Assembly: GCA_030599585.1 (NCBI GenBank)
Contig: JAUVNS010000020.1
Span: forward strand, 1-64,000
DNA length: 64,000 bases
DNA from: Promethearchaeota archaeon
Lineage (GTDB): Archaea > Asgardarchaeota > Lokiarchaeia > Sigyniarchaeales > SOKP01
Reading direction: 5' to 3'
Of this stretch, positions 20,296 through 26,799 are shown piece by piece. A program made the position numbers and the translations under genes. Numbering within the stretch: the first letter of the stretch is position 1; every line of letters starts with the position of its first letter. The notes under the pieces were generated by a model that worked only from the letters and a program-made list of their open reading frames with translations, made no database searches and was not told where the DNA came from.

Positions 20296-21189
20296 TTAAT
20301 TCAAAGAATTAAAATTAATACTAATATTGGCTAGAAGTTCTTTGTACCTTGAGCGTAGGGTGACCTCTGTAACCGATATTACCTTGGAAATGTCTTTTTG
20401 GCTCACTTTAACATTACGGAGTTTGGAAACCAAATAAATTGCTCCAGCGCAGAGTCCTTTAGGATCTTTTCCAGAAATAGAGGTTTTTAATATAAAGTTG
20501 CGAAGCACTTTCATTGCTTCTTTTTCTACCTCAATTCCTAAACTTAGATCAGCACAATAACGCGGTATAAGAGTTACTGGATCAATATGTGATATCTTTA
20601 AATTCAACTCCCGAACTAATATCTTATAGCATTTCTTTACGATATTGTCGTTAATGGAAGCTTCTGATAGTATTTCTTGAAGCGTAATAGGTACTTTTTC
20701 GTCTTTACACGCATAGTACGCACAGGCTGCAACCATTCCGTTTATCGATCTTCCTCGCAAAAGTTGTCTTTTAAAAACTTCTTTATACAGTCTAACGGCA
20801 GATTTTTTCACTCTTTCAGGAAAATTTAGATTACCCCCTATTCTTTTCAGCTCGGTAATTGCCATTAACATGTTTCTCTTTTCCCAAGACAGATGCGTAT
20901 TCCATTTAGCAGCTCTTCGTAAATCAGGATTTTTGATTTTGGTCCTATCGATAACGGTACTCAGACCTATATCTGGCATCAAGATAGACATAGGAGACCC
21001 TGTCCGCTCCTTTCTATCTTTTTCGTGTTTCGAATAAGCCCTTATCCCACTATGACCAATATCCAAACATCTCTCGTTAACTACTAGTCCACACTGTTGA
21101 CAGACCGTTTCTCCTCTTTCTTGTATGATAAGAGTACTTCCCCCACATTCGGGGCATAAATTTGATGATACATCTAATTCAACAACCAT
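20296..21189 (-). CDS. tfb: Transcription initiation factor IIB (TFB) paralog
   Basis: CPECG...CQQCG Zn ribbon, B-reader ERTGSP, RGRSING-VAAC-Y, GKDPKGLCAGAIY and VTEVTLRSRYKEL. Confidence 0.95.
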   Translation of the reverse strand: MVVELDVSSNLCPECGGSTLIIQERGETVCQQCGLVVNERCLDIGHSGIRAYSKHEKDRKERTGSPMSILMPDIGLSTVIDRTKIKNPDLRRAAKWNTHLSWEKRNMLMAITELKRIGGNLNFPERVKKSAVRLYKEVFKRQLLRGRSINGMVAACAYYACKDEKVPITLQEILSEASINDNIVKKCYKILVRELNLKISHIDPVTLIPRYCADLSLGIEVEKEAMKVLRNFILKTSISGKDPKGLCAGAIYLVSKLRNVKVSQKDISKVISVTEVTLRSRYKELLANISINFNSLN

Positions 21190-21740
21190 ATTAAAATACC
21201 ACTTTACTTATAGTTTATTTATTTTTTTTGTCGTTCCTTTTTTTTACTATTCTCGTTTTTCAAGGGAATAGTAGGACAAATATTTATACTTTTGAACACA
21301 CATAAATTTTGTTTGTTATCTCAATCAATGATAAATTTATATTTAAATATTATGCTTTTGTAATACAAATTTTGTTTTTAGTAGTACTTTTTTTTTTTTT
21401 TACCCTAATTTCCCGTGAACAATAGGAATTTATATAATTTGAATATAAATATTTATTTTTGAATTAATAATAGATATATCATTAGGGTATATATTTTGAT
21501 TAAAAAATGTCTTATCTTGAACCTTGGGTGAAACGATGTCCTTGATTTTGCTTCTTGAAAATTAAGATATCTCATTTTTCATGCAAAGAAAATTACGGCT
21601 TTATTCTTTATCGAGTTAAAATAAGTAAATAGTTATCGTCTTATCTTTTTACATAATATTAAATAAAACTTTTAACACTAATTTTTTGATCTTATTTTCG
21701 TCTTTTTAAAAATAAAGTTTTCTTTTAAGGTGAAAAACAG

Positions 21741-22745
21741 ATATCGCAAGAACCGGAAAAATCAAATAAGAAAGAAAATCCATCCACGATGAATGACAAG
21801 AGTTCGAGTAAGGATAAATCAGAAGATAAACCTAATATGACCGAAAAAGAAATAGAAAATATTAATCTTAACGACGAAAAGATAAAGCGGTATATGAAAC
21901 AGTACAAAGAAGAGAACGATAAATACGCAATTTGGAGAGGCGCGATAACTGAAGGTTTTAAAAAGTGGTTAAAAGGCGAAAAAATCTATACGCGCGACAA
22001 GGAAAGAATATCCTTATATGTTGACGATAAGATTAAGGGAAATTGGCAAAAATTTATAAATAAAAACAAGGAATCCTTTCCTACTTTTTCAGAGCTAATA
22101 AGACAGAGCGTTAAGTCATTTATGGAAGATTCGAGTAGGGTGTCGAGCGAGTTATCTAAACTTAACCCTAGTACCCTATCTAACATCTCTCACGCTTTAA
22201 AGGAACCTCTCACATCTATTAAAGGCTATTCTCAGTTACTTCTTGAAAGCGAAGAATTCAAGGGTAAATTAAGTGAGCATGTTGAGGAAACAATAAAAAA
22301 TATTTTTGATCAGAGCAATTTACTAGAAAACATTATAAAGAATTTCCTAGACAACATTGAACCTGAAAGTACTCCGTACGACATTTTATTAATTGAAGAT
22401 GATTTGGCAACAATTCGGCTAATAACTAGCTATTTTGAAAGTAAGCATTACATCTGTAAGGGAGTTGTAAGTGGGACAAAGGGTTTAGAAGAATTAAGAA
22501 GGGTGGTTCCAAAAGTTATACTGTTAGACATTATATTGCCTGATTTAAGTGGGTATGATATATGTCAGACAATAAAAACCGATAACACTTACAAAAAAAT
22601 ACCTGTTTACTTTCTAACAGCGATATCCGCATCAGAAATAAAAAAACGTTTAAATGAAACGCTAGCTGATGGATACATCCTTAAGCCATTTAACTTTTCT
22701 GATTTTAATGTTATATTTGAGATTTTAAATGGAAAAGCGGATTAA
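21741..22745 (+). CDS. RHH-HisKA(DHp)-REC hybrid regulator, copy 1 (start ATA 21741 or ATG 21789)
   Basis: ERISLYV...FSELIRQSV (RHH); SHALKEPLTSIKG (H-box); LLIEDD...LLDIILPD...KPF (receiver). No HATPase domain. Confidence 0.85.
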   Translation: MSQEPEKSNKKENPSTMNDKSSSKDKSEDKPNMTEKEIENINLNDEKIKRYMKQYKEENDKYAIWRGAITEGFKKWLKGEKIYTRDKERISLYVDDKIKGNWQKFINKNKESFPTFSELIRQSVKSFMEDSSRVSSELSKLNPSTLSNISHALKEPLTSIKGYSQLLLESEEFKGKLSEHVEETIKNIFDQSNLLENIIKNFLDNIEPESTPYDILLIEDDLATIRLITSYFESKHYICKGVVSGTKGLEELRRVVPKVILLDIILPDLSGYDICQTIKTDNTYKKIPVYFLTAISASEIKKRLNETLADGYILKPFNFSDFNVIFEILNGKAD

Positions 22746-22995
22746 TCTGAGTATATATAACTGAATGATCTCCATCAAGAGAAAAATGGTGATTTTTCTT
22801 TGGGTTTGTTAACTTTTAAATAAATACGATATAACTTAATTGGGTTAAATTTATTTTTTGTGAAGAATTACTTTTAAGTAAAAAATTAGTTTACAAAAAA
22901 TAAAAATTTTTATAATAAGCACTATATTAATTTTAGATTTTTAAGCGTAAAATTACTCAGAAATATAATAAATGAAAAAATCATAGGTGTAAAAA

Positions 22996-23949
22996 ATTCC
23001 TAACGAAAAGAAGAACGATAGTAATTCAAGTGGTAAGGAAGATGACACAAGTCCAAAAATGACCGACGAAGAAATAAATAATCTGGATTTGAATAGCGAA
23101 CAAGCGAAAAAGTTGATGAGAGTATATGAAGAGACCACTGATAAGTATGCTAATTGGCGTGGAAACATAACAGAAGGTTTTATGAAATGGCTTAAGGGAG
23201 AAAAAATATACGACAGAGAAAAGGAACGTATTTCCTTGTATGTAGCTGATAAAACCAAAGAAGAGTGGAGCGAGTTTATAAAAACTCATAAAGATAAATA
23301 TAACACCATTTCCAAACTTATAAGAGAGAGTGTTAATTATTTTATTAAGCAAGAATCCACTCTAATCAGCGAAGACTTACATAAAATAGACAACCAAACT
23401 CTTACAAACATATCGCATGCGCTAAAGGAACCGTTAACGTCAATCAAAGGATTTTCTCAACTATTAATTGAAAATTATCGCGATGAGATGGAAGAAAATG
23501 TTTTTAACACCATTCAAAATATATTCAATCAATCTTTACTTTTAGAAAACAAAATTATCAGCATTCTGGACAACATAAAAACAGAAACTTCTCAATACGA
23601 CATATTACTTATTGAAGATGATTTAGCTACTATTCGTTTGTTAACAAGCTATTTTGAAAGCAAGGGTGTTTCCTGTAAGGGCGTAGTTAGTGGAACAAAA
23701 GGATTGGAAGAGCTAGCGAATAATCCACCTAAGTTGGTATTGCTGGATATTATTTTACCCGATTTTAGTGGTTATGACATCTGTAAGCGAATTAAAGCAA
23801 GTAAAGAGCTTCAAAACATTTCGGTTTATTTGTTAACTGCCATACCAGGATCAGAAGTAGAAAAGAATCTCGAAGATAGCAATGCTGACGGTTACATTCT
23901 AAAGCCTTTTGATTTCTCTGATTTTGAAGTAATATTTCAATATTTGTAA
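22996..23949 (+). CDS. RHH-HisKA(DHp)-REC hybrid regulator, copy 2 (start ATT 22996 or ATG 23059)
   Basis: Same architecture as copy 1: ERISLYV...ISKLIRESV, SHALKEPLTSIKG, LLIEDD/LLDIILPD/KPF. Confidence 0.85.
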   Translation: MPNEKKNDSNSSGKEDDTSPKMTDEEINNLDLNSEQAKKLMRVYEETTDKYANWRGNITEGFMKWLKGEKIYDREKERISLYVADKTKEEWSEFIKTHKDKYNTISKLIRESVNYFIKQESTLISEDLHKIDNQTLTNISHALKEPLTSIKGFSQLLIENYRDEMEENVFNTIQNIFNQSLLLENKIISILDNIKTETSQYDILLIEDDLATIRLLTSYFESKGVSCKGVVSGTKGLEELANNPPKLVLLDIILPDFSGYDICKRIKASKELQNISVYLLTAIPGSEVEKNLEDSNADGYILKPFDFSDFEVIFQYL

Positions 23950-23981
23950 TAAGATAATAGCACTTTTTATTAAAAAATAAG

Positions 23982-24055
23982 CGGGCTATGAGGGAATCGA
24001 ACCCCCGACCTGCCGGTTAAGAGCCGGATGCGCTACCTGACTGCGCTAATAGCCC
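23982..24055 (-). tRNA. tRNA-Lys(CTT), intron-less
   Basis: GGGCTAT/ATAGCCC acceptor, CCGG-CT-CTT-AA-CCGG anticodon arm, TTCGATT T loop. Confidence 0.93.
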
Positions 24056-24080
24056 ATTTTGTATTCCTTGCCATTGAAAA

Positions 24081-24181
24081 CGCACCTGGAGGGATTTGAA
24101 CCCCCGAGCGCTTACGCGCACTGGCTTACTTGATCGTATAATTTACTCAAGGCCAGCGTCTTACCACTAGGCTACAGGTGC
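24081..24181 (-). tRNA. tRNA-Ser(TGA) with canonical 37/38 intron (24127-24145, 19 nt)
   Basis: GCACCTG/CAGGTGC plus G73; CTGGC-CT-TGA-G[intron]A-GCCAG; long variable arm; BHB central helix CTTG/CAAG. Confidence 0.9.
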
Positions 24182-24429
24182 TCCAATTATTTTGATTCTA
24201 GGCAGAATAATAATAGAAAAATATTCCTGATTATTATCTGCTTGATACATTCAACCTATATTTGAAAAATTTTTATTCTAAATATTGTGATATAGATATT
24301 AAAATAGTTTATTTTTAATAAAATAAAATTCTTTTTATTTTAATCTCGTAATTCCTAACCTTCATGAGAACAGTAAAGAAAAAATATAAATTTTAAGCAA
24401 CATTGACTCATAATTGAGATGATGTAAAA

Positions 24430-24912
24430 ATGAGTGGGGCAAAAAATTTTAGGTATTTGATACCAGATCGATTATTTAAAGAACTTACTAAGAAAGCCGC
24501 AGATGTTCATCCAAATATCGAACACTATTGGATTTTTGCTGATCGTAAAGAAAACTTTGGAATTGTTAATAAATTTATCGTTAACCCCGATTTAAGGAAG
24601 TCTAAGACTCATGTAAAGCCTAGGTCATGGATGCGTTATAAAAAATCGAAGATTTACAACATGCGTAAGTTTAAACAGGAACTTAACGTAGATATAGTCT
24701 GGCAAGCACACACGCATCCATCAGGAAACGATAAACTACACCAAATTGATAAAAGGATACTTAAATATCTTTCAAACGGTGTTATGATTATCATTATTCC
24801 TCACATTCCGGAAAAAGACTTAGAAGGGCATATGGTGGGTTGGTATTACGATAAGCGGTATACAAAAAAACCGATGATTGAGAAAATGGTATTTGAGATC
24901 ATCCAAGAATAA
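24430..24912 (+). CDS. JAB/MPN (JAMM) domain protein
   Basis: N-terminal E (NIEHY) and the motif AHTHPSGNDKLHQID. Confidence 0.75.
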   Translation: MSGAKNFRYLIPDRLFKELTKKAADVHPNIEHYWIFADRKENFGIVNKFIVNPDLRKSKTHVKPRSWMRYKKSKIYNMRKFKQELNVDIVWQAHTHPSGNDKLHQIDKRILKYLSNGVMIIIIPHIPEKDLEGHMVGWYYDKRYTKKPMIEKMVFEIIQE

Positions 24913-26271: not shown

Positions 26272-26427
26272 AAATTAGTGTTATGAATAATGTTATAAAG
26301 AATTGCTTAAATCTAAAATTTCCCTTTTTATCACACCGTATCAAGATTTTCTTTCGTTCTAACAAAATTTATATTCTTGTGGTTTTATGATTCATTAAAT
26401 ACAATATTAGAGAATTATGGTGGAGAT

Positions 26428-26799
26428 ATGGAACTACAACGGTTTAATTATTTAGTAGAAGAATTAAGGGAATATAACGGGATGGAAGAGATTTTCGTGT
26501 TGAGTCCTGAAGGTGAAATCCTTTTTAAATCTGAAGAATTCCAATTATCAAATGAAGAAGCGAAAGCCATCTTAAAAGCGTGGAAAGAACATGAACAAGC
26601 TTTAATGTTCCAGAGCTTTAGATATGCCATTTTAAAAAACGATGAGATACAACTAGCAGCAAAAAATATTGTTGGAGGAAAGGGCAATATAGTTGGATCT
26701 ATTACGAGAGAAGGAGATTACATCATAGCCCATACGCAAGATGAGGGTCTTATTGTGCTTGAATGGTCAATTTTTATCAATAAGATTGCTTGGAGTTAG
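26428..26799 (+). CDS. Profilin-like protein
   Basis: 123 aa from an ATG preceded by GGAG. The pattern IFVLSPEGEILFKSEEFQLSNEEAKAILKAW...FRYAILKND...KNIVGGKGNIV...YIIAH follows the profilin fold order. Confidence 0.78.
   Translation: MELQRFNYLVEELREYNGMEEIFVLSPEGEILFKSEEFQLSNEEAKAILKAWKEHEQALMFQSFRYAILKNDEIQLAAKNIVGGKGNIVGSITREGDYIIAHTQDEGLIVLEWSIFINKIAWS

Follow-up and report, generated by a model that had tools for sequence, protein, structure and literature searches.

Archaeal response regulators almost never carry recognizable DNA-binding outputs, and thus the route from two-component systems to transcription is largely obscure in these organisms. The rare archaeal response regulators that are transcription factors include LtrR of Methanococcoides burtonii, in which a helix-turn-helix (HTH) domain is followed by a receiver (REC), and FilR1 of Methanosaeta, which has the domain order wHTH-DUF1724-REC (PMC5847659). 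In one sentence and with no analysis, the same survey (Galperin, Makarova, Wolf, Koonin 2018, J Bacteriol, PMC5847659) lists regulators termed "Arc-type RHH-HisKA-REC", where RHH is a ribbon-helix-helix domain, in Lokiarchaeum (GC14_75), four per genome, and leaves contamination open for them. RHH-HisKA-REC regulators are not treated in a 2023 survey of Asgard kinases. Here we analyze two genes of this type, denoted A and B, which stand in tandem at positions 21741-23949 of a stretch of 64,000 nucleotides from a Promethearchaeota archaeon (assembly GCA_030599585.1, contig JAUVNS010000020.1, positions 1 to 64,000; contig C4 below). This whole stretch is referred to as the window. The host genome is a 4.85-Mb genome of a Loki-type Asgard archaeon with a GC content of about 32%, and the homologs of the two genes come from sources named Lokiarchaeota or Promethearchaeota. 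An earlier interpretation of the locus, made from the nucleotide sequence and its open reading frames (ORFs) and called here the sequence-only reading, had held that DNA-binding outputs are rare in archaeal response regulators, in agreement with the 2018 survey, and had raised the possibility that the architecture was already characterized: it is catalogued in that survey but has never been studied.

Genes A and B lie on the same strand, and their products, paralogs that are 62% identical across 298 residues, consist of an N-terminal module, an RHH segment, a kinase-derived DHp hairpin, and a receiver, in this order. We suggest that A and B are orphan RHH transcription factors controlled by phosphorylation, in which the DHp hairpin mainly dimerizes the protein and transmits the signal and the DHp His is not an obligatory phosphoryl carrier; we assign to this reading a probability of roughly 55%. 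Like LtrR and FilR1, A and B would have an N-terminal DNA-binding output (predicted here) and a C-terminal receiver, but this output is RHH rather than HTH, and the middle domain is a DHp derived from kinases. With the regulators listed in 2018 they share the domain order, the phylum, and the four copies per genome; to that listing the present analysis adds the N-terminal motif, the variable His, the link to a transcription factor B (TFB) gene, the start codons, and the demonstration by synteny that the genes are native. The mobile N-terminal motif, which also occurs on the tail of RNA polymerase subunit A', the probable ATA and ATT starts, and the identical ribbon of A and B are new, and the points most worth following are the motif common to RNA polymerase and the family-wide adjacency to TFB. 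With the RHH-DHp-REC family, Loki-type Asgard archaea have four regulators of this kind in each genome, one conserved pair standing beside an alternative TFB, and A and B constitute a natural experiment on the function of a DHp hairpin without its ATPase. The two genes and their domains are as follows (HMM, hidden Markov model; pLDDT, predicted local distance difference test).

21741..22745, plus strand: gene A, a response regulator of RHH-DHp-REC order; 334 aa from the probable start, ATA at 21741, or 318 aa from the first ATG, at 21789
21876..21992, plus strand: N-terminal mobile motif of A (motif HMM 68.8 bits), modelled as helix, beta-hairpin, helix
21999..22139, plus strand: ribbon-helix-helix of A with the ribbon ERISLYV, placed by alignment to B
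22176..22352, plus strand: HisKA-type DHp hairpin of A with the H-box SHALKEP and His135, numbered from the first ATG (Pfam HisKA 47.4 bits; alignment to the HK853 DHp, E 2e-7)
22383..22703, plus strand: receiver of A with the phospho-acceptor Asp247, numbered from the first ATG (Pfam Response_reg 67.4 bits)
22996..23949, plus strand: gene B, a response regulator of RHH-DHp-REC order; 317 aa from the probable start, ATT at 22996, or 296 aa from the first ATG, at 23059
23098..23214, plus strand: N-terminal mobile motif of B (motif HMM 70.5 bits; predicted structure)
23221..23361, plus strand: ribbon-helix-helix of B, residues 55-101, with the ribbon ERISLYV and helices 64-76 and 84-101 (AF2 pLDDT 90)
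23392..23571, plus strand: DHp hairpin of B, helices 112-143 and 146-171, with His120 (Pfam HisKA 31.9 bits; model)
23602..23937, plus strand: receiver of B with D187, D230, T260, Y279, and K282 (Pfam 65.2 bits; Foldseek matches RR468, DivK, and PhoB at E 1e-9)

In both proteins the HisKA (PF00512) and Response_reg (PF00072) matches exceed the Pfam cut-offs of 26.9 and 30.2 bits, respectively, and neither protein has a Pfam match to HATPase_c at E<=1, so that the order of domains without a kinase ATPase, as deduced from the sequence, holds. The receiver follows directly after the second DHp helix, with a linker of about ten residues. The alignment of the DHp of A to that of the histidine kinase HK853 of Thermotoga maritima (PDB 2c2a, 3dge) spans 66 residues (E 1e-6 to 2e-7); the two His residues fall in register, and the motif P-L-T-x-I-K is common to both. 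This register bears out the earlier claim that the residue following the His is Ala instead of an acidic one. The H-box reads ISHALKEPLT versus ISHELRTPLT of HK853, that is, Ala rather than Glu at H+1 and Glu rather than Thr at H+4, and therefore both the acid/base residue of HisKA kinases and the Thr/Asn of HisKA phosphatases are absent. Unlike HK853, A and B lack the ATPase (CA) domain; the receiver occupies the position of CA, and the RHH segment that of the kinase sensor. The receiver of B contains the acidic pair E186/D187, the acceptor D230, T260, the aromatic switch Y279, and K282. In the conservation alignment of 35 members, 25 of them divergent representatives, D187, D230, and K282 are invariant and T or S at position 260 is found in 34, which confirms the intact receiver seen in the sequence.

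Two further RHH-DHp-REC paralogs, both without the N-terminal motif, are encoded on contigs C41 (249 aa) and C8 (234 aa) and bring the number in this genome to four; the one on C8 has a kinase gene and a CheC/CheD cluster beside it. Of 68 genomes sampled from the host's own family, 64 contain the RHH-DHp module, with up to 14 matches per genome, and the tandem A-B pair is conserved through this family. All four genomes of a sister family contain homologs of 45-50% identity, and in the rest of the phylum sample only weak matches (E 1e-5 to 1e-8) occur, in 5 of 232 genomes. The conservation of the DHp His differs from that of the receiver. It is present in 25 of the 35 aligned members; of the 25 divergent representatives, 15 retain it, and the other ten have F, Y, V, L, R, K, N, or E at this position. 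The residue at H+4 is Glu, Gln, or Asp in 32 of 35 members. These substitutions suggest that the family as a whole works without the DHp His, while in the tandem clade it may still have a role.

The two-component inventory of the genome comprises 12 kinases with HisKA and HATPase domains, CheA, and 15 REC domains; about eight receivers stand alone. None of the 15 REC domains lies inside a kinase frame, so there are no hybrid kinases in the genome, and its sole HPt is the one in CheA; therefore, a multistep relay is not indicated. No kinase genes were found within the window, and no conserved partner kinase was found beside the single-copy homologs of the sister family f4, the neighbors of which are a rhamnosidase and a semialdehyde dehydrogenase. 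Among the REC proteins of the genome, a recognized DNA-binding domain is present only in the four RHH-DHp-REC regulators.

These counts bear directly on the one-protein phosphorelay proposed in the sequence-only reading. Spelled out, such a relay would have the DHp His take a phosphoryl group from stand-alone receivers or from the CA domain of a kinase acting in trans, in the manner of Spo0B and ChpT, and pass it to its own receiver, which then controls the RHH. Spo0B and ChpT are histidine phosphotransferases of the DHp type that retain a degenerate CA-like domain and in which the His is essential. A and B resemble them (for the ChpT-receiver complex, see PDB 4qpj) in combining a His-bearing, HisKA-like hairpin with a lack of kinase activity; in the A/B family, however, the receiver replaces the CA domain, and many members do without the His. 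A relay would be in line with the exact HK853 register of the His and with its retention in the tandem clade (63 of 64 distinct sequences), where the ISHALKEPLT box around it hardly varies; the stand-alone receivers of the genome could be the donors, and, judging from the model and from known kinase structures, a receiver held by a linker of about ten residues at the CA position could reach the His. Phosphotransfer is also deemed possible for HisKA-only proteins by Galperin et al. (PMC5847659). Still, the His is lost in the ten divergent members, which have perfect receivers with the invariant Asp and Lys, and is replaced by Tyr in one ortholog of the tandem clade; the genome offers neither a hybrid kinase nor an HPt outside CheA; and a relay is unnecessary, since a kinase can phosphorylate the receiver directly. 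The phosphorelay is thus the weak part of the sequence-only reading, and we consider it unlikely.

The assignment of the RHH domain comes mainly from structural models. An AlphaFold model of residues 1-112 of B has a pLDDT of 90, and that of the whole protein has a pLDDT of 88. The modelled parts are a helix/beta-hairpin/helix unit at 14-45, the extended segment ERISLYV, helices 64-76 and 84-101, a low-confidence linker, the hairpin 112-143/146-171, and the receiver at 182-296. When the N-terminal model was compared with about 48,000 solved chains using VIA-align, residues 55-112 matched RHH proteins almost exclusively, the top matches (Z 5.0-6.1) being MazE-mt9 (Z 6.1), PrpA, ParD2, TacA1, NikR, and the PutA-DNA complex; the DNA-bound RHH of PutA superimposes on that of B with a root mean square deviation (rmsd) of 0.9 A over 44 residues. 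Foldseek ranks ParD2, NikR, CopA, and PutA first for the same model, with non-significant E-values, and returns receivers only for the whole protein. Comparison of the family profile with PDB yields weak matches to CopG, a ParD-like antidote, and ORF56 (E 0.3-0.5), and Pfam RHH_1 matches three of 23 relatives (best E 6e-4). According to the models, residues 55-112 are an RHH fold, in agreement with the literature and with the original assignment. The ribbon residues R57, S59, and Y61 all point the same way, with conservation of at least 90% for R57 and Y61; the R-x-S-x-Y pattern of the ribbon is conserved, as is the Ser at the start of the second RHH helix. This ribbon is consistent with the reading of DNA by a predicted RHH dimer. 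Among solved structures, NikR, which combines an RHH with an ACT-like nickel domain, and the RHH of PutA (PDB 1q5v and 2rbf, respectively) are close counterparts (rmsd 0.9-1.1 A over 43-44 residues): their RHH is N-terminal too, and a C-terminal domain that senses and oligomerizes controls its DNA binding, as is predicted for A and B. The difference is that in A and B the signal would be Asp phosphorylation, acting via the DHp bundle.

The RHH-like segment could also be a protein-protein module, of the kind seen in some antitoxins and partition proteins, that does not bind DNA and has a role outside transcription, for instance together with small GTPases that share the N-terminal motif. Its structural neighbors are mostly antitoxins, its scores with the Pfam RHH models stay below threshold, and the motif preceding it is found on GTPases, membrane proteins, and an ABC ATPase. 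But antitoxin RHH domains themselves bind operators, and no toxin partner adjoins genes A and B; the R-x-S-x-Y ribbon and the initial Ser of helix 2 are conserved; and the motif is found on RNA polymerase A' as well. We regard a role of this kind as very improbable. Outside the regulators, an RHH-like segment of the same family (KEKISFYVSKDVKDSWLNFAKTKDYSTLPDFIIKSIEFYI) forms the C-terminal part of a HAD-family hydrolase of 363 aa (G000:C26:19483-20574, minus strand).

The N-terminal module of A and B contains a motif of about 30 aa, Y-x-x-E-x-x-K-Y-A-I-W-R-G-x-I-T-E-G-F-K-K-W-L-K-G-E-K. A search with residues 1-110 of B against 1.84 billion representative proteins yielded 91 clusters. In metagenomic proteins the motif, as YExETGKxAIWRGxITxxFKKWxKGEK, also occurs without the RHH, namely in fusions with Arf/Ras-family GTPases, in tandem repeats, and in the tail of a NosD-type beta-helix surface protein; one of the motif-bearing metagenomic GTPases also contains gelsolin, and another one a receiver. 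The motif HMM, run on six-frame ORFs of the host genome, places the motif at the very C-terminal end of subunit A' of RNA polymerase (Rpb1 domains 1-5; G000:C34:6390-9344), at frame residues 953-981 with E 9e-8. This copy (MYHAETDKNAEWRGKLTKGYLEWKK) sits behind a Lys/Pro/Ala-rich linker, and the motif-bearing tail of A' is present in 39 of 40 genomes from 13 genera of the family. Other proteins of the genome with the motif are an ABC ATPase (at the N-terminus), a 459-aa repeat protein, two membrane proteins (at the tails), and, weakly, a leucine-rich repeat protein (E 0.007). The motif, with no Pfam match and no usable match in the ESM Atlas, could be placed in no known family or fold, and no literature was found on it or on the C-terminal extension of A' in Lokiarchaeota. 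The N-terminal domain of RNase H1 (PF01693) was rejected as its identity: the match, in one metagenomic protein only, scores 18.3 bits, below the cut-off of 21, and has no counterpart in the host genome. Speculatively, the motif is a separate tethered module that possibly links the regulator to the transcription machinery. Its presence on A' newly hints at a docking module that might be tethered to the polymerase.

Combining these observations, we propose the following scheme for A and B as phosphorylation-controlled transcription factors. Two chains would dimerize through a DHp-like four-helix bundle, and the ribbon strand of each would thereby lie next to that of the other in a DNA-reading sheet. 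With the receiver hanging from the end of the second DHp helix, where a kinase has its ATPase domain, and the RHH at the position of the kinase sensor, the protein would resemble a histidine kinase wired backwards, the receiver being the input and the N-terminal RHH the output. The receiver Asp is presumably phosphorylated by at least one of the 12 unlinked HisKA kinases; the phosphorylation would alter the packing of the receiver against the DHp, thereby the RHH dimer in its geometry or oligomeric state, and finally operator binding. The DHp His would mainly be a relic or a docking residue.

A comparison of A with B across 24 genomes revealed only four positions that are fixed differently: two in the DHp (Y/F132 and F/I169), one in receiver helix 1 (I/L195), and N/D285. 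Position 195 is equivalent to I17 of RR468, which is among the residues altered in the rewired interface of PDB 4ja2. A-type and B-type orthologs have one and the same ribbon, ERISLYV, which suggests that A and B read the same DNA half-site and have slightly different bundle or docking surfaces. The two regulators may thus integrate two inputs on shared targets, and, as the conserved adjacency would indicate, the likeliest of these are their own promoters and the divergent TFB paralog. The paralogs may also heterodimerize, as the sequence-only reading supposed.

The differences at positions 132, 169, and 195 would also suit another function of the kinase-less DHp, namely that of a receiver-docking decoy or a phosphatase for other regulators or for the receiver of the partner paralog, the RHH serving only for dimerization or autoregulation. 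The DHp of HisKA kinases is a natural receiver docking surface, and phosphatase activity of HisKA-only proteins has been raised by Galperin et al. (PMC5847659). Against this, the phosphatase Thr/Asn at H+4 is replaced by Glu, Gln, or Asp in nearly all members, as counted above; the proteins' own receiver retains all catalytic and switch residues, as befits an input and not a bystander; and the ribbon residues are conserved as the reading of DNA would predict. A decoy or phosphatase therefore appears quite improbable.

Divergently from gene A a TFB paralog is transcribed, the two being separated by an intergenic region:

20296..21189, minus strand: TFB paralog with a Zn ribbon and two cyclin repeats, divergent from gene A (Pfam TFIIB 136 bits, Zn_Ribbon_TF 31.6 bits)
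21190..21740, no strand: TFB-A intergenic region, 551 bp (alignments of orthologous intergenic regions)

All 16 genomes sampled from the host's own genus have TFB next to the divergent pair, one of them with 3 kb inserted between TFB and A, and five further genera (six in all) show the same order, the TFB identity being 77-94%. The divergent TFB neighbor of the sequence-only reading is thereby well established. Moreover, in more than 20 genomes the pair is syntenic with TFB and profilin, which shows that the genes are native. There are 20 matches to the TFIIB repeat in the genome, hence about ten TFB genes, of which the neighbor is one. Its adjacency to the pair makes a functional tie between two-component signaling and alternative TFBs plausible. 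A further-reaching variant would make the pair the endpoint of a signaling route that selects a lineage-specific alternative TFB from among the approximately ten, resembling the choice of a sigma factor, and the N-terminal module an Asgard docking domain, not described before, that ties two-component and GTPase signaling directly to the transcription machinery; we consider this variant unlikely. Elsewhere in the genome, a second TFB paralog of 293 aa is followed 3 nt on by a stand-alone receiver (123 aa) within a kinase/chemotaxis cluster, the two genes together occupying C8:145031-146287.

Both genes probably start at non-AUG codons, ATA at 21741 for A and ATT at 22996 for B, as judged from the orthologs. 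The ATA of gene A sits 7 nt behind GGTGA (21729-21733), which resembles a Shine-Dalgarno (SD) sequence; in 13 of 15 orthologs the same column is ATC, ATT, or ATA, 6-7 nt after GGTGA and often straight after a stop codon. From this column the frame is open through to the conserved domains, and the encoded peptide, I-[TS]-x-x-P-x-K-S-N, is conserved among the orthologs, while the ATG at 21789 is AAG in an ortholog of 93% identity. In gene B, the ATT lies 6 nt after GGTG (22986-22989); the orthologs have ATG, TTG, ATC, or ATT in this column, the 93%-identical one having ATG, and the ATG at 23059 is replaced by GTA, CTC, TTA, or TTG in several of them. Because the comparison of orthologs favors the ATA and ATT columns, we take A as 21741-22745 and B as 22996-23949; the start of A at 21741 and the intergenic region of about 550 bp, as first read from the sequence, are in accord with this choice. 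Genes A and B are each preceded by their own conserved promoter-like block, that of B being located in the second intergenic region:

22746..22995, no strand: A-B intergenic region; contains a separate, conserved promoter-like block at 22847-22880 and GGTG at 22986-22989 (ortholog alignment)

The conserved blocks of the TFB-A region 21190-21740 are CACACA at 21297-21302, a TATA-like TTAAATA at 21659-21665, and CACTAATTTTTTG at 21676-21688. In addition, a palindromic TATA-like element (TATTTAAATA, 21340-21349), situated 120-170 nt from the TFB start codon, is conserved across the six genera, and in most of them the CACACA box is about 45 nt closer to TFB. Given its distance from the start codon, the palindrome implies either a long TFB leader or another intergenic transcript. 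Two metagenome runs labelled "RNA-Seq" are probably DNA and carry only short contigs of relatives.

Several observations weigh against A and B being transcription factors that act on TFB through a His-independent switch. As regards DNA binding, no Pfam RHH model matches A or B themselves, and no repeated operator was established: direct and inverted repeats in 21150-24450 are AT-rich noise only, and phylogenetic footprinting of both intergenic regions revealed TATA-like and SD-like blocks and no repeated half-site. As regards the switch, the models are of monomers and, with a predicted template-modeling score (pTM) of 0.48 for the whole of B, do not fix the relative placement of the domains. 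The near-complete retention of the DHp His within its box in the tandem clade, with Ala at H+1 in 57 of the 64 distinct sequences, exceeds the need of a purely structural role. As regards TFB, in the genus g14 the pair faces a stand-alone receiver gene instead, and the best TFB match there has only 57% identity; in the sister family f4, the single homolog adjoins genes of sugar and amino-acid metabolism and the adjacency to TFB is lost; and, where it is present, this adjacency belongs to a larger syntenic block that comprises orf160, DUF2110, and profilin.

Two members of this block were located in the window. The profilin-like gene is at 26377-26799. Directly downstream of the pair, at 24430-24912, lies an ORF of 160 aa (orf160) that belongs to no Pfam family and is found at 77-95% identity in nearly all pair-bearing genomes. 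Immediately after gene B, a tRNA-Lys(CTT) gene occupies 23981-24055 on the minus strand. A second T-arm-like copy (GAGGGATTTGAACCCCCGA), not called by ARAGORN, is present 99 nt further on, at 24089-24107, and may be part of an intron-containing tRNA.

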